Virus record (IMG/VR): IMGVR_UViG_2778261380_000007 | Location: 1 to 29,228 of that record | Direction: 5' to 3' (one strand) | Length of the DNA: 29,228 nucleotides | Source of the DNA: a virus | Taxonomy: Duplodnaviria > Heunggongvirae > Uroviricota > Caudoviricetes | Part shown: in pieces, positions 1-26,895 of the stretch | How positions within the stretch are numbered: the first letter of the stretch is position 1 | How the letters are laid out: the number at the start of each line of letters is the position of its first letter | Made by a program: the position numbers and the translations under genes | Notes under the pieces: generated by a model | Told to the model about the DNA's origin: nothing | Databases searched by the model: none | Seen by the model: the letters and a program-made list of their open reading frames with translations, nothing else

Positions 1-1158
1 ATGCTCACTGTTAAGCAGATTGAAGCAGCAAAGCCGAAAGAAAAACCATACCGCCTTCTCGATGGTAATGGCCTGTACCTTTATGTCCCTGTATCCGGGA
101 AAAAGGTATGGCAGCTTCGCTACAAGATTGACGGTAAGGAGAAAATCCTGACCGTAGGAAAATATCCGCTAATGACTTTGCAGGAGGCAAGGGATAAGGC
201 ATGGACTGCGAGGAAAGACATCTCGGTTGGCATCGATCCGGTAAAGGCGAAAAAGGCTTCGTCTAACAACAATTCCTTTAGTGCGATTTACAAGGAATGG
301 TACGAGCACAAGAAGCAAGTCTGGTCAGTAGGCTATGCAACTGAACTTGCCAAAATGTTTGATGACGACATTTTACCCATCATCGGCGGTCTTGAGATTC
401 AGGATATTGAGCCGATGCAACTGCTGGAAGTAATCCGCAGATTTGAAGATCGCGGCGCAATGGAGCGAGCCAACAAAGCACGCAGAAGATGCGGCGAGGT
501 TTTCCGTTACGCTATTGTCACTGGTAGGGCTAAATATAACCCGGCACCTGACCTTGCTGACGCCATGAAGGGATACCGCAAGAAGAACTTCCCGTTTCTC
601 CCAGCAGACCAGATCCCTGCATTCAACAAAGCACTGGCAACATTTTCAGGAAGCATCATATCGCTCATTGCGACCAAAGTTTTACGCTACACAGCCCTAA
701 GAACGAAAGAGCTTCGTTCTATGCTATGGAATAACGTCGATTTTGAAAACAGGATTATCACTATCGACGCCAGTGTGATGAAGGGACGCAAGATTCATGT
801 GGTCCCGATGTCGGACCAGGTGGTTGAACTTCTCACTACGTTAAGCTCCATCACCAAACCAGTATCAGAGTTTGTTTTTGCCGGGCGTAACGATAAGAAG
901 AAGCCAATCTGCGAGAACGCGGTATTACTTGTGATCAAACGAATCGGCTATGAGGGTCTGGAAAGCGGTCACGGATTCAGGCATGAATTCAGCACGATTA
1001 TGAACGAGCACGAATGGCCTGCTGACGCTATTGAAGTGCAACTGGCACATGCCAACGGCGGATCTGTGCGCGGAATTTACAACCATGCTCAGTATCTCGA
1101 TAAGCGCAGAGAAATGATGCAGTGGTGGGCGGACTGGTTAGATGATAAGGTGGAGTGA
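1..1158 (+). CDS. int: Tyrosine integrase (P4/Sf6-type, with N-terminal arm-binding domain)
   Basis: 385-aa ORF. N-terminus KPKEKPYRLLDGNGLYLYV...GKKVWQLRYK matches the arm-binding domain pattern of P4-family integrases; C-terminal HGFRHE and RGIYNHAQY resemble the catalytic H-x-x-R and Tyr. Recognised from memory, no search run. Confidence 0.9.
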   Translation: MLTVKQIEAAKPKEKPYRLLDGNGLYLYVPVSGKKVWQLRYKIDGKEKILTVGKYPLMTLQEARDKAWTARKDISVGIDPVKAKKASSNNNSFSAIYKEWYEHKKQVWSVGYATELAKMFDDDILPIIGGLEIQDIEPMQLLEVIRRFEDRGAMERANKARRRCGEVFRYAIVTGRAKYNPAPDLADAMKGYRKKNFPFLPADQIPAFNKALATFSGSIISLIATKVLRYTALRTKELRSMLWNNVDFENRIITIDASVMKGRKIHVVPMSDQVVELLTTLSSITKPVSEFVFAGRNDKKKPICENAVLLVIKRIGYEGLESGHGFRHEFSTIMNEHEWPADAIEVQLAHANGGSVRGIYNHAQYLDKRREMMQWWADWLDDKVE

Positions 1159-1184: not shown

Positions 1185-1216
1185 GCAAGGCCTGGCACTC
1201 AAGTTACAGGCCTTGC
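1185..1216. terminator. Perfect 10-bp inverted repeat (GCAAGGCCTG / CAGGCCTTGC, 12-nt loop) between the convergent int and tailspike genes; candidate bidirectional terminator and/or part of attP
   Basis: Seen directly: stem 1185-1194 pairs with 1207-1216. T-rich tract follows on the - strand and AT-rich DNA (1217-1266) on the + side. Confidence 0.5.
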
Positions 1217-1266
1217 GCATACAATTTATCAACTAATAATTTAATTTTTTAAAATATCAATTAATT

Positions 1267-3441
1267 CTATCTAATCCTGAACATTACAATTGGAGCAGAG
1301 CCAGAAGATAAAGGGCCTGACCAATGGTATCTAATTCTGAAAGAAGACTCACTTGGAGTTCCGATAATTTCTATTGGACTTAAAGTTGCACCTTCTGCAG
1401 AACCAGCAGGTTGTCTAAACCCCAACACAGCAATCTGGTTTGGTGTTGGGGCATACAGAAAATTATGCTCAATATCAACCTCGTTAGATTCGCTACCTGT
1501 TGGGTTTGGCATATTCCACTCAATATAATCGTCAGTTGATTTCCCATTTATTGAGTTTCCAACTGTTGCCATAATCGTCCACGTACACGTCCTGTTAAGG
1601 GCTGCCATTCTATCACCTAAAAACCTATTATAACCATTTGCGCCTGAAGTGATTAATCTTATATTCTCTGATGCACATGTGCCAATGCTGTTAAATCCAG
1701 TGCAATCAGAAGAAAGCCCCTTCGCAGTTATATCTACGCTGTTCGCAAAACAAATTGTTGTTGAATTTACTGCATCGCGAATAAGAGCAGAACCCGAAAA
1801 CAAATTATCACACGAACCTCTTATATTATTACCACCGCCGGATAAGTAACATAAATTTCCTTTTATCCTCTTGGATGTAAAAGTAACATTGTTATTGTCA
1901 CCAGTAACAGAAAGAAGCGAGGCTTTAATAGGGGCATTGTCACTCTGTAACTGACCAATTTGGTTTATTGTAACTACATTGTTGTTGCCTGATATAGCTA
2001 TCTGATACCCATCATCATCAATTGAAGGTGAATATCTTTGTGCTTTTATATTGATGTTAAGTGTCCAGATTGTACCGTTATCCAGAAGCATGTCGCGGAG
2101 AGGAGAAATTGAATCGCCAGTGTAGTTATCTGGCATTCTTCCGCACGCCCTGGCTTCTGCGATGGCAACAACACCATGTGCCCCGTTGGTAAACCAGTAA
2201 CCACCTAAACTATTATCAACACACACATGCCTCGCATTGAATCGGTTAACACCCAGCGTCTTAAATCCATAGCCATAATACGCAGCATATACATGGATGT
2301 AATTTATATCGACATGTCCTGTATAAGGAGACTGATTATCAAGAACAATTCCATGACATGGTTCTCCGGGATAAAGAAGGCTTTGTTGGCTTGTTGCTGT
2401 TAATCTTGCGCTGTAAGGAGGAAGTCCACACAGGCCAAAAACAATATAATCCATGTTAATATCACCTGGCCCCCTGAACACAACCCCCTCTCTCCCTGAA
2501 ATTCTTCCCGTTATCCTCACTTCAGAGGCGTGTTCCTGATTATCATGAAATGATCCATACCCCTCTGAATAGAGAGCATGTTCTGCAACATTATTAATCT
2601 CAACGTCAATGTGGTACATGCTGCCGAATATTTTAATGGCAGTTCCATAGTCATTGTTAACAGTGTCGCAAGTTCTCCATGAGTTTGTATCTCTTTGCAA
2701 GTCAAGATAATTACCATCAATGGTCATATCTTTTATGCTAAATCCATATGGCGCATCAGACAGATTTTCCACAACGCCAAAGCCATGTGTTTTAAATACA
2801 TCTGTATTACTACCTTTTTTAACATACAGAAATGTTGCTCTCTTTCCAGAGCCTTTATGATGAACGCCTGTATAAAGAATGATAGGAGAATCTATTAAAT
2901 AAACACCTGGAGGGTAAAATATTTCCCCGCCACCATTATTAAAAGCAGCTAATGCTGCGGCATTAATGGCATCAGAATCTGATGTCAATCCATCTGCTTT
3001 AGCTCCATAGTATTGAGGTGTTTTCCTGATTGCATCGTAAACCGTTGAAGCGCCGAAACCGATATATTTACTACCATCTGTACCGCCAATAAGTAATTTA
3101 AACTGATCCGGGTCATACTTCAGCACATTCGGAAAATAGAACTGCTGTGTACCATACGCATCATAAACAGCCATAGAATGGCCTTGCACGGTTACGAATT
3201 TGGCAATCTGTCCGTTATATACCGGATATCCAGCAGCGTTAATGATTATTGGTTGCGAAACAGGAACGTGAGAACCGTCTTCATTCTCCACATAAACCTG
3301 AATCTGGTTTTCAGGATTTACTGGGTCAGTGTCAATTTTACCGATATAAATTTTGCCATTAGCTACGGCTTTAAAAGAGCGGGCCATAGTGAAGAGTTGC
3401 GAAGGCATGCTCACTACAACATTGGCTGTAATGTCTGTCAT
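1267..3441 (-). CDS. Tailspike protein (P22 gene 9 family): conserved N-terminal head-binding domain fused to a divergent receptor-binding domain
   Basis: 724-aa ORF. First ~110 aa ([43 protein letters not shown]...[10 protein letters not shown]) closely match the P22 tailspike head-binding domain as I recall it; the remainder is not P22-like and is more AT-rich. Confidence 0.9.
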
Positions 3442-23524: not shown

Positions 23525-23708
23525 CTCTTTCACTCCATCCGCGATGAACCATGAGAACGTCGTTGACGATGGCGTGCATTTTCCCGTCTTTATCATCAAC
23601 GTATTTTCTTACCGTACCGCGACTACATTTCAGTCTGCGTGCTACTTCTGTCTGGTTTCCGTATGCTTCAACGAGCATGTCTGGAATGGTTTTTACTGAG
23701 AACGTCAT
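23502..23708 (-). CDS. ninH: NinH
   Basis: 68-aa ORF identical in length and near-identical in sequence to lambda NinH from memory. Confidence 0.9.
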
Positions 23709-24313
23709 GCGGCCTCACTTCTGCTGTTTCGCAGGTCTTTGAGTTTCTGCTGATATTCCGCCTTGATGGCCCTGCACTCTTCGACAGTCCAGCGATGGCG
23801 GTTATGGTTTGATTCGATTTCGTCTACTGCTTCCTGCCCGATGCGGCTAATCAGTTCGACGCGATACGGAACGAGATTTCCGCTTTTGTGCTGGTTGCAC
23901 ACCACGCATTGCTTGTGAATATTGCGTTCATCAAATCGGAGTTGAGGCGCCGCAGCAGTTGTCCGGTAATGCCCGGCATCCCACTGAGCAGACGTGAGCG
24001 TTCCGCACGAGATACATGGTAAGTCGCGGTCTCTTTCTCTGATGAAGGCGTTTACGGCTTGTTGGGCTTGTTTAATCCAGTAACTGCGGGGCTTTAAGGC
24101 GAGTTTTCGAATCTTCAGTTTATCTTTCTGTTTCTGCTCATCTCGTCGTCGTTTCTTCTCTGCTGCTTTTTCCGCTTTTTTGCGCTGTTTGCTTCGTAGT
24201 TTGAGTGCTAATTGAGTTCCATGTTCCGGGCAGCACCACCACTGATTTGAGAATGCCGGGTGAAACCATTCCTTGCATATTTTGCATTTCCTTCGCGCTG
24301 GTTTAGCCATCAT
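23705..24313 (-). CDS. ninG: NinG (Rap) recombination endonuclease
   Basis: 202-aa ORF, highly similar to lambda NinG from memory (Cys-rich N-terminus, [14 protein letters not shown] linker). Confidence 0.9.
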
Positions 24314-24363
24314 CTTCTTCCTCGTACATTGAGCTATTCGGATCGCTCATCAGTTCTGCGCAG

Positions 24364-24870
24364 TTATGGTCTGCCATGGTTTTCATGAAAACCCAGTTCT
24401 TTTTCTGCCCTCTTCCTTTCTGCAATAGCGTCAATGATGCTAGCAAATATTCCAAGATATTTGGTGCGCCCATCTACGCATATATTCGCAATCCACTTAC
24501 ATCTCTCTTTATTGAAATATACTCCAGTCACTCCTGACGAATTGGTTATTTTTCTCTTTTGGTTCTGTGCATTCTGTTGGTGTGTAACCAATCGAAGATT
24601 AGATAGCCTATTATCTGACCTTACTCCATTTATATGATCAATTTTATACCCTAATGGAATCTCACCATTATTTATCATCCATATAACGTGGTGAGCATAA
24701 GTAATTACACCATCGATAGTTAACATCCTATAACCATCACTCCTAATGTAACCAGCAACACTGCCAACCTTAACATTATTAGAAGGAGACACTTTCCATC
24801 TAAGTACACCTAAAACATCATCATATGATAATTTATTTCTTAATTCGTCTATGTTGCTTATATTTCTCAT
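24364..24870 (-). CDS. HNH homing endonuclease with AP2-like DNA-binding domain
   Basis: 168-aa ORF in a markedly AT-rich segment. N-terminal NUMOD4-like region (WKVSPSNNVKVGSVAGYIRSDGYRMLTIDGV), HNH motif (IDHINGVRSDNRLSNLRLVTHQQN), C-terminal AP2-like segment (SGVTGVYFNKERCKWIANICVDGRTKYLGIF). Confidence 0.8.
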   Translation of the reverse strand: MRNISNIDELRNKLSYDDVLGVLRWKVSPSNNVKVGSVAGYIRSDGYRMLTIDGVITYAHHVIWMINNGEIPLGYKIDHINGVRSDNRLSNLRLVTHQQNAQNQKRKITNSSGVTGVYFNKERCKWIANICVDGRTKYLGIFASIIDAIAERKRAEKELGFHENHGRP

Positions 24871-25012
24871 TATGTTCCACCATATTTAAGCATTCATATA
24901 TACAACGCTCACACACGTGAACTTCCAGCACATGCAGCTTCTGACCGCAGTTAGCGCACGTTAATGCCCGCTCGACGCTTTCTTGTTCGTAACTTCGATT
25001 TTGGTCAATCAC
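24833..25012 (-). CDS. ninF: NinF-like protein with altered C-terminus
   Basis: Core [25 protein letters not shown] matches lambda NinF; GTG start at 25010-25012 overlaps the ninE stop; the last ~12 codons overlap the start of the HNH gene and differ from lambda. Confidence 0.6.
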
Positions 25013-25191
25013 CTTGTTTTCCTCGCACGATGTCTTAGCCACCGGATATCCCACAGGTGAGCCGTGTAATTGAAGGTTTTTACATCAGATTCTTTTGGGA
25101 TTGGCTTGCGTTTATTTCTGGAGCGTTTCGTTGGAAGGTATTTGCAGTTTTCGCAGATTATGTCGGTGATACTTCGTCGCTGTCTCGCCAC
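25009..25191 (-). CDS. ninE: NinE
   Basis: 60 aa from GTG at 25189-25191 with an AAGGAGG RBS (4-nt spacing, slightly short); sequence [26 protein letters not shown]...[17 protein letters not shown] matches lambda NinE. The ORF-track start is further upstream. Confidence 0.8.
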
Positions 25192-25331
25192 ACGTCCTCC
25201 TTTTCCTGCGGTAGTGGTAACCACCCTGTTGGTGTTCTTTCACACCGGAGACACCATCGATTCCAGTAAGGTTGCCCGGGTCGAAAGCGATCGCCTTCCT
25301 TTCGCTCTCCACATCGATAACAGTGCTTCAT
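25158..25331 (-). CDS. ninD: NinD-like small zinc-ribbon protein
   Basis: 57 aa from ATG 25329-25331, which overlaps the methyltransferase stop (ATGA); CxxC...CxxC pattern ([16 protein letters not shown]...WCLRCE); same length as lambda NinD. Overlaps the ninE start by ~34 nt in another frame, so the exact boundaries are uncertain. Confidence 0.55.
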
Positions 25332-25918: not shown

Positions 25919-26355
25919 GCAGCTTTATCTCCCCATCGCGCTTTCCATTCCAGAGCCAGTCTCGCTTCGTCTGACCACTTAACGCCACGCTCTGCACCGA
26001 ATGCCTGTATAAGCTCTAATAGCTCCGCAAATTCGCCTACACGCATCCTGCTGGTTGACTGGCCTATTACCACAAAGCCATTCCCGGCAAGGTTAGGAAC
26101 AACGTCCTGCTGCTTTAATGCTGCGGTAAACACACACTTCCAGCTTTCTGCATCCAGCCAGCGACCATGCCATTCAACCTGACGCGAAACGTCACCAAGG
26201 CAAGCCCAAAGCTTCCGGTTTTGGTCTAAGCTGCGGTTGCGCTCCTGAATGGTTACTACGATTGGTTTGGTTGGGTCTGGAAGGATTTGCTGGATGGCTT
26301 GAATGGCGTTCTGCTGATGGATGGGGCTTCTTAGTTCAAACGTTAGTTTCCTCAT
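25915..26355 (-). CDS. ninB: NinB (Orf) recombination mediator
   Basis: 146-aa ORF, same length as and highly similar to lambda NinB from memory. Confidence 0.9.
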   Translation of the reverse strand: MRKLTFELRSPIHQQNAIQAIQQILPDPTKPIVVTIQERNRSLDQNRKLWACLGDVSRQVEWHGRWLDAESWKCVFTAALKQQDVVPNLAGNGFVVIGQSTSRMRVGEFAELLELIQAFGAERGVKWSDEARLALEWKARWGDKAA

Positions 26356-26572
26356 GGGATGAACTCCAGTGTGCGATGTTAAATTCCCATTTAATTACCT
26401 TTGCATACCCAATTTTGAACCCATCAATACCTATCCACCGCTTGCCACTCCAATAAGCTGTACCACTATGCTTGAAATGATGTGGATGCTTAGATTGAGT
26501 GGTCACTGTTACAGGTAAATATGGCTTCGGGTATTCCCCATTCCCTGGATAACCAGATTTAATTCTGCTCAT
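26336..26572 (-). CDS. Hypothetical small His-rich protein (78 aa)
   Basis: ATG overlaps the stop of the upstream 108-aa ORF (ATGA) and its 3' end overlaps the ninB start, giving a chain of coupled genes; no recognised motif. Confidence 0.5.
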   Translation of the reverse strand: MSRIKSGYPGNGEYPKPYLPVTVTTQSKHPHHFKHSGTAYWSGKRWIGIDGFKIGYAKVIKWEFNIAHWSSSHEETNV

Positions 26573-26895
26573 TGATACCCTCTCTCACTTAATCGCCTCC
26601 ACGCTTCGTTAAACTCTTCACGAGTTGCGCCGGATTTTCTTTCTTCAAACATCATGCATTCGCTGATGTCTCCCCATGACTTTGGTCGCTTTTCAGCGAA
26701 CAGATCATCCCATTCGAATACCCAGCGGCCTGATTTTCGGTAGTGGTAAATGGTCAGCCATGTTGTGCTGTTCGCTGGATACCCATAGAGAACTTCGACT
26801 TTTTGATCACGGTCTTTATGCTTTTTCAGCAGGATAAAGCCAGCAACCAGCGAAGCTCCGGCAAGAATGACGATTGGAATTTGCCAGTCAGCCAC
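26569..26895 (-). CDS. Hypothetical membrane-anchored protein (108 aa)
   Basis: Strong RBS (GGGGGAGAGGG) upstream of the ATG; N-terminal hydrophobic helix IPIVILAGASLVAGFILL; first gene after the tR2-like terminator. Confidence 0.6.
   Translation of the reverse strand: MADWQIPIVILAGASLVAGFILLKKHKDRDQKVEVLYGYPANSTTWLTIYHYRKSGRWVFEWDDLFAEKRPKSWGDISECMMFEERKSGATREEFNEAWRRLSERGYQ

Follow-up and report, generated by a model that had tools for sequence, protein, structure and literature searches.

The 29,228-nucleotide (nt) stretch examined here (IMG/VR record IMGVR_UViG_2778261380_000007, positions 1 to 29,228; hereafter the window) is, as judged from its gene calls and Pfam matches, a P22-like Escherichia coli prophage. 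Its nin region carries a 539-bp cassette, encoding a 168-residue HNH endonuclease with a predicted AP2-type DNA-binding fold, within the coding sequence of ninF (Table 1). We delimited the insert by anchored string comparison with lambda ninF (NC_001416), because MAFFT misplaced the 3' part of the lambda gene against the long gap. Homology to lambda extends through ...GTT CAC GTG TGT GAG C.. TG and resumes at C TGC GCA GAA CTG ATG AGC GAT CCG..., locating the insertion point in codon 37 of the 56 codons of ninF, between its second and third bases (TG/C; here and below, a slash marks the junction). The gene is collinear with that of lambda on both sides of the insert, with 110 nt aligning on the 5' side and 60 nt on the 3' side, and the spacing between anchors is 24 nt in lambda versus 563 nt in every interrupted locus, hence the size of 539 bp. 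We regard the insertion of an HNH-AP2 cassette within ninF as close to certain. A preliminary description of this DNA, made from the sequence alone, had situated the endonuclease gene between ninG and ninF; the comparison with lambda that it proposed corroborates the insertion, but the boundaries fall inside ninF and not in a spacer. Therefore, the ninF-ninG junction, which it suggested as a substrate for cleavage assays, would be the wrong one, and the relevant target would be intact ninF, GTGTGTGAGCACTGC/TGCGCAGAACTG. The same description was right in pointing to a sharply AT-rich block, since the GC content is 34.9% in the insert versus 48.8 and 50.3% in the flanking 1 kb, which makes it the lowest-GC stretch of the window with the exception of the tailspike region.

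The cassette is compact and self-contained, comprising a leader with its own ribosome-binding site and an open reading frame (ORF). The 32-nt leader is the only part outside the ORF, whose stop codon is followed by nothing else, and a Shine-Dalgarno-like GGTGGA can be read at 24876-24881, 5 nt before the HNH ATG. Matches to promoter consensus sequences were no more frequent in the cassette than in shuffled sequences, and its expression presumably takes place from the transcript of the pR operon. The single terminator call in the region was discarded, as it consists of the ninF CxxC region together with the AT-rich leader next to it. We also ruled out that an RNA hairpin sequesters the ribosome-binding site, as occurs in T4 endonuclease genes, since the fold of 24840-24940, around the HNH start, is not significant (z=-0.99).

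The precise preservation of the two ninF parts on either side of the insert is also what could be expected from a group I intron or an intein, eliminated after transcription or translation so that full-length NinF is still made. We consider this exceedingly improbable. The insert is out of frame (539 bp, mod 3 = 2), the host frame reaches a stop after 22 codons, and the endonuclease gene has its own ATG and TAA, all of which argue against an intein; as for an intron, the non-ORF part amounts to 32 nt, all of it before the start codon, and lacks significant RNA structure, and a cmscan search of 24100-25300, on both strands, returned no Rfam match at E<=10, including group I and group II introns.

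The 5' fragment of ninF retains 37 native residues, with both CxxC pairs (CANC...CERC), and continues with 22 new residues encoded, in another frame, by the leader of the cassette and the initial 12 HNH codons. The end of this fragment overlaps the HNH start by 38 nt, or about 12 codons, as had been noticed previously. The last 22 residues are indeed unlike lambda; nevertheless, the 3' end of ninF is not rewritten, as was proposed, but displaced, and the lambda-type C-terminus (19 codons plus stop, 24303-24362) is intact directly after the HNH stop codon. This remnant overlaps the start of ninG (ATGATGGCTAA) exactly as in lambda and contains, untouched, the GAGGA ribosome-binding sequence of ninG. 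Furthermore, an ATG inside the 3' end of the HNH gene is in frame with the remnant, generating a mini-ORF of 24 codons (24303-24377, minus strand). This ATG arises from conserved His-Gly codons of the endonuclease C-terminus (..AAC CAT GGC..). The in-frame arrangement could be due to chance (1 in 3) or it could keep ninG translationally coupled. We give little credence to two more elaborate possibilities, namely that this enzyme and its HNH-AP2 paralogues, by breaking short conserved nin genes, are a major force behind the exchange of modules at the ninF borders of lambdoid and P22-like phages, or that the split NinF works as a two-piece protein. If the latter were true, its two parts, a head of zinc-ribbon type bearing a new basic tail and an acidic 24-residue peptide restarted from the cassette's ATG, would constitute a 'gene in pieces' in a temperate phage.

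The product of the ORF matches Pfam HNH_3 (E=1.2e-19; 70.1 bits versus a gathering score of 24.8; residues 58-102) and PHROG 99, 'HNH endonuclease' (E=3e-70), in agreement with its first identification as a 168-residue HNH endonuclease. In a phmmer alignment to I-HmuI (1u3e), residues D78, H79, N91 and N100 align with D74, H75, N87 and N96 of this enzyme; D78, N91 and N103 do not vary among 63 homologues, in which conservation is at least 90% for H79, N87 and N100. An AlphaFold2 model built from the 63 homologues, with a mean predicted local distance difference test score of 90.2, has I-HmuI as its best Foldseek match in the PDB (E=8.6e-4, probability 1.0, ca. 21% identity), and its HNH domain is predicted to adopt a beta-beta-alpha fold like that of a solved HNH homing endonuclease. 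Enzymes of the I-HmuI type nick a single strand, and by analogy the endonuclease from the ninF cassette may do the same. A packaging-associated HNH protein of the HK97 gp74 type was ruled out, both by the position of the gene in the nin region, far from the terminase (ca. 16.8-18.7 kb), and by its family (HNH_3 with AP2).

The AP2-fold part of the model consists of three strands (residues 117-120, 125-132 and 135-142) followed by a helix (145-159). The AP2 domains of the plant proteins TEM1 (7et5; root-mean-square deviation of 1.3 A over 47 columns) and AtERF1 (1gcc; 1.8 A over 50 columns) superpose on it with probability 1.0, and Foldseek also matches it to 3igm. The Pfam AP2 profile (PF00847) remains below threshold with the complete protein (15.4 bits versus 33.3; E=0.024) and scores 16.9 bits with the isolated C-terminal part; PF00847 is carried by many homologues of 40-50% identity. 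The HNH-AP2 label of the preliminary description is thus supported at the level of the modelled fold and through the homologues, but not by a direct profile match.

The insert occurs in 45 out of 5,426 complete E. coli genomes, at 47 places that are all chromosomal, with identities of at least 99% in 44 of these genomes, and IMG/VR contains 29 loci with the cassette. An index of the assembly collection lists the identical protein in 3,440 blocks and on at least 1,000 contigs, from E. coli and E. albertii, with 'HNH endonuclease' as its sole name in these sources. Among 50,697 phage genome records, there is none that covers the insert or encodes a protein with 60% identity or higher, the closest being HNH genes, of ca. 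50%, from virulent Klebsiella and Escherichia siphophages. These relatives and the low GC content of the insert speak for a foreign origin of the cassette. Likewise, the GTDB representatives, with one genome per species, yielded no confirmed relative by a method that needs exact 8-residue words.

Using as query a 50-nt synthetic 'empty site', made from the window's own flanks, we located 1,975 uninterrupted ninF sites, distributed over 1,590 of the 5,426 complete E. coli genomes (ca. 29%), plus 213 phage records. No record matched the synthetic site exactly; the best ones (three records, 96%) contain CAC TGT, and most contain CAC TGC. The cassette is therefore present in ca. 2.7% of the ninF-bearing complete E. 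coli genomes and, as deduced from these comparisons, the interrupted arrangement is derived and in a minority, rather than ancestral as the preliminary description had contemplated for the case against an insertion. Uninterrupted ninF exists in the same gene order, for instance in E. coli D1 and lambda; an isogenic partner with an empty site was not found at identities of at least 99%, the best same-order uninterrupted locus reaching 95.4%. Around the insertion point the intact gene reads as given above; codons 25-50 of lambda ninF are GTGCTGGAAGTTCACGTGTGTGAGCACTGCTGCGCAGAACTGATGAGCGATCC and the P22 allele of the same region is GAAGCGTGC.

For a closer comparison, we assembled 39 complete copies of the cassette: those in the window and in E. 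coli E2348/69, ten from assembly loci and 27 from IMG/VR loci. All 39 are inserted at the identical nucleotide (TG/C of codon 37), in agreement with the defined insertion site anticipated for this element; 38 of them have 539 bp and an intact ORF, and the remaining one has 540 bp and is frameshifted. Every one of the 39 interrupted alleles, and none of the uninterrupted sites surveyed, has also changed CAC to CGT in codon 36 (His36Arg), 3-4 nt from the junction. The stretch divided by the insert is itself conserved in the majority of ninF alleles.

The cassette is found on at least six downstream and at least three upstream gene modules. Upstream of the occupied ninF the neighbour can be ninE, ninX (in which case ninF has an N-terminus of P22 type, MLSPSQSLQYQK...) or a different ORF; downstream, the neighbours include ninG, an ORF of 70 amino acids with ybcO and rusA, an ORF of 393 nt, a Rha/Ant antirepressor and an IS21 element. 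This last element (L007 4741-5523), of the IS21 family and with an IstB-like ORF on the opposite strand, lies just 3' of the ninF remnant and parts it from ybcO and rusA. The junctions between modules coincide exactly with the start and the stop of ninF, and within this gene we could distinguish 13 joint flank haplotypes among 28 less biased loci. Closer to the insert than 34 nt on its downstream side, or 66 nt on its upstream side, flank variants are singletons only; the common ones, which also occur in empty alleles, start at those distances. The flanks of 25 nt on each side vary in four of the 39 occupied alleles, whereas about three quarters of the empty alleles differ there at further positions. 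Nucleotide diversity (pi) is 0.005 in the insert versus 0.018 in the flanks, and the density of segregating sites also differs (Fisher p=3e-4). This pattern, which is supportive but not decisive, would fit a single cassette lineage moving among ninF alleles with short conversion tracts.

Polymorphism in the ORF is predominantly synonymous (13 of 21 sites, with eight non-synonymous), despite synonymous positions being only 21% of the sites, with a ratio of non-synonymous to synonymous polymorphism (pN/pS) of ca. 0.16 (binomial p=5e-5); all three common polymorphisms are synonymous. The endonuclease gene thus looks constrained at the sequence level, which for a selfish nuclease would imply continuing activity.

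A single Logan contig (L019 1-909, from SRR25288770) contains a variant of the endonuclease with 85% identity, inserted at the same junction (..CEKC/IY..) of a clearly diverged ninF. Its junction reads ...ATT CAT GTT TGT GAG AAA TG/T ATA TAT G..., and ybcO follows directly. The 3' junction of this variant is 27 nt shorter, so that the endonuclease lacks its own stop and runs eight codons into the ninF remnant (176 amino acids); there is also an in-frame mini-ORF of 14 codons, MADPNGQMLEKDDG, and hence the relation between the ATG and the remnant holds here as well. Apart from near-identical copies, we found no relative of this endonuclease lineage closer than 85% identity. The occurrence of this variant at the same site indicates that the association of the endonuclease with ninF predates the near-clonal E. 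coli population. The proposal of a recent insertion is consequently sustained only in part: the E. coli copies are at least 99% identical, but they contain common internal synonymous polymorphisms and coexist with the 85% variant.

These data bear on the possibility that the cassette is a passive passenger that entered ninF once and was then distributed by vertical inheritance and ordinary recombination only, without the nuclease driving its spread at this site. General recombination would shuffle ninF anyway, as a short and highly conserved linker between module junctions; besides, the cassette is rare (45 of 5,426 genomes), it is absent from isolated phages, and the common polymorphisms in the insert suggest that it is not extremely young. 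Nevertheless, an inert gene in a non-essential region would hardly be expected to show 38 intact ORFs among 39 together with a strong synonymous excess. The catalytic residues are all retained, the variant of 85% identity is found at this very site of a diverged ninF, and the sequence next to the insert varies much less than in empty alleles, as expected with travelling short conversion tracts. In our opinion, a passive passenger is unlikely.

The best reading of the sequence data, and a probable one, is that the cassette encodes a free-standing homing endonuclease, still active and directed at intact ninF. During infection or induction, the gene would be transcribed as part of the delayed-early pR operon, and the AP2 domain of its product would bind conserved uninterrupted ninF at approximately codons 30-45 (...GTGTGTGAGCACTGC/TGCGCAGAACTG...), allowing the enzyme to nick or cut the intact gene at the predicted target. 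Recombinational repair from a cassette-bearing genome would then copy the cassette into the recipient ninF, along with ca. 25-60 nt of each flank, and the interrupted allele would be immune owing to both the splitting of the site and the adjacent CAC-to-CGT change.

Several points weigh against an active homing endonuclease. The target site is deduced solely from the position of the insert, and a similar picture could arise if ordinary homologous recombination among mosaic lambdoid phages, in which ninF serves as a conserved linker, had carried one ancestral insertion onto many backgrounds. The contrast in diversity between insert and flanks is modest (ca. 3.4-fold) and was measured on short flanks. 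In addition, the loci were found by look-ups of the exact protein or of exact 8-residue words, which are biased against non-synonymous and truncated copies, and truncated forms of the endonuclease do exist in the database (P0003, P0004 and P0011). The rarity of the cassette (ca. 2.7%, and none among the 50,697 phage records) could be considered unlike a strong driver, unless it is young, costly or poorly sampled. Finally, homing endonucleases usually avoid breaking genes and this cassette truncates ninF, although ninF is dispensable.

Purifying selection on the ORF would equally be expected if the nuclease had been domesticated, that is, if it were kept to damage competing lambdoid phages with intact ninF, or for another phage function, with mobility being secondary. 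Such competitors would be common: ca. 29% of the complete E. coli genomes have the predicted target, as do many phages of Salmonella and E. coli. Several paralogous HNH-AP2 genes accumulate in nin regions. However, pR, the promoter that drives the nin region, is repressed in the lysogen, and therefore the enzyme would confer no protection on a resting lysogen; its distance from the terminase also separates it from packaging nucleases of the gp74 type. The biochemical activity would be identical to that of a homing enzyme, and sequence cannot separate these two roles. We deem domestication improbable, somewhat more so than a passive passenger.

Among the known systems close to the ninF endonuclease is I-HmuI, from Bacillus phage SPO1, which is the best structural match to the whole protein and shares with it the HNH_3 core and the D-H...N...N catalytic residues. 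Both are phage-borne and each is tied to a specific insertion site in a conserved gene; I-HmuI, however, resides inside a self-splicing group I intron and has NUMOD and helix-turn-helix modules, whereas the ninF cassette contains no intron and encodes an AP2 fold. Related HNH_3 homing endonucleases from phages are I-HmuII, I-BasI and I-TwoI.

The architecture and size of the protein are those of the HNH-AP2 proteins of virulent phages (including PHROG 99 and the Klebsiella and Escherichia siphophages), with 40-52% full-length identity, and these are likewise free-standing. Their genes, though, sit between genes, while the ninF cassette is inside a coding sequence of temperate lambdoid/P22-like Escherichia prophages. 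An 'HNH-AP2' class has been tabulated for the T4-related phages RB49, JSE and RB43 (PMC2993671). No biochemically characterised AP2-type HNH enzyme turned up in the literature that we searched.

Insertion of endonuclease genes into coding sequences has precedents. The nrdA gene of Aeromonas phage Aeh1 is split by mobE, and the T4 topoisomerase genes 39/60 are likewise split. A free-standing homing-endonuclease gene also splits nrdD in Felix O1-like phages (PMC4837284). As with ninF, an endonuclease ORF within the coding sequence leaves in these cases two separately translatable pieces; in ninF, it is the insert that supplies the stop for the upstream piece and the in-frame ATG for the downstream piece. 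The other split genes encode essential enzymes whose pieces reassemble, while ninF is a dispensable gene of 56 codons with no assigned function. The predicted mechanism is also the same as that of the seg and mob genes of T4, i.e. intronless homing, in which the allele lacking the endonuclease is cut in mixed infections and repaired with short co-conversion tracts; however, seg enzymes are GIY-YIG nucleases and mob enzymes belong to other HNH lineages, and their genes are usually intergenic and cut in a neighbouring gene. Our literature searches for ninF with HNH, or for the nin region with homing endonucleases, retrieved no description of this insertion. What is particular to the ninF cassette is its temperate host, its position inside a coding sequence, its compactness and the linked substitution adjacent to the target. 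To our knowledge, homing endonucleases are well documented in lytic phages (the T4, T5, SPO1 and Felix O1 groups) and have seldom been analysed in temperate lambdoid phages.

With a compact, precisely bounded cassette of 539 bp, a conserved candidate target in lambda itself that is easy to synthesise, a linked His-to-Arg change in the interrupted allele and natural variants available, lambda genetics could be used to measure homing and the length of co-conversion tracts, and also to gauge the contribution of endonuclease breaks to the mosaicism of the nin region. Additionally, the cassette offers a route to what would be the first known biochemical description of an AP2-type HNH homing enzyme. 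A practical gain is the correction of recurrent annotations, in which ninF is called twice, the endonuclease is called a pseudogene and its fragments a 'phosphatase'. In the E2348/69 copy (NC_011601.1; L002 6195-6344), for example, PGAP calls an incomplete pseudogene and, twice, 'protein NinF', with the 168-codon ORF being intact in the DNA, and several of the partial endonuclease copies P0104 and P0106-P0112 are named 'serine/threonine protein phosphatase, partial' in NCBI.

Related prophages contain HNH_3 genes at other sites of the nin region: between ybcO and rusA (L008 and L009 5053-5577), upstream of ninB (L010 2768-3253) and between ninB and ninE (L009 3081-3683). They include two HNH-AP2 paralogues, with 39% and 41% identity to the endonuclease of the ninF cassette, and one NUMOD4-HNH_3 gene (27%). 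It would seem that homing-endonuclease genes land in the nin region quite generally, and the two paralogues set a precedent for the homing reading of the ninF cassette.

The remaining genes agree with the lambda-like neighbourhood originally described, with NinB, NinD, NinE, NinF, NinG, NinH, a phosphatase and Q all identified, and all the genes in the nin part of the window are on the minus strand (Table 1). The window also contains the P22 coat and portal genes, plus an early-right region of lambda type.

Table 1. Features of the ninF cassette and of the surrounding prophage, with positions in the window
Feature	Position	Strand	Remarks
Inserted cassette	24364-24902	minus	539 bp, 34.9% GC; without counterpart in lambda, P22 and the ca. 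1,975 E. coli ninF sites
Cassette leader	24871-24902	minus	32 nt, AT-rich, TATATATGAATGCTTAAATATGGTGGAACATA
Putative homing-endonuclease ORF	24364-24870	minus	168 codons; its TAA (24364-24366) closes the insert
HNH_3 (His-Me finger) nuclease domain	24565-24699	minus	residues 58-102
Predicted AP2-fold DNA-binding domain	24391-24537	minus	residues ca. 112-160
ninF 5' fragment ORF	24833-25012	minus	59 amino acids; Pfam NinF (PF05810), E=7.7e-12
Displaced ninF 3' remnant	24303-24363	minus	third base of codon 37, 19 codons and stop
ninF codon 36	24905-24907	minus	CGT (Arg) here; CAC (His) in uninterrupted alleles
ninG (rap)	23705-24313	minus	downstream neighbour; Pfam NinG, E=8.9e-90
ninE	25009-25191	minus	upstream neighbour; Pfam NinE, E=3.9e-44; overlaps the ninF start; from gene calls in the identical locus L004
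NinD	25349-25158	minus	
MT-A70 methyltransferase	25918-25328	minus	
NinB	26355-25915	minus	
Two small ORFs	26336-26895	minus	108 and 78 amino acids; between the helicase gene and ninB
DnaB-type helicase	28344-26968	minus	heads the nin-region order in the direction of transcription
NinH, then NinI-type phosphatase, then Q	22862-22239 (Q)	minus	3' of ninG
Integrase	1-1158		
Tailspike with P22 head-binding domain	1267-3441		

No Pfam family matches the two small ORFs preceding ninB, which are found again in related loci (e.g. L004 1976-2535). The MT-A70-family DNA methyltransferase occupies the position of lambda ninC, which encodes a phosphoadenosine phosphosulfate (PAPS)-reductase-like protein; in other related loci this slot contains ninC or is empty, reflecting the ordinary mosaicism of the nin region. 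A second low-GC stretch (1201-3300; 38-40%) corresponds to the C-terminal receptor-binding part of the tailspike gene, whose product combines a P22 head-binding domain with a pectate-lyase-like fold, and its low GC content probably marks a horizontally exchanged host-range module.

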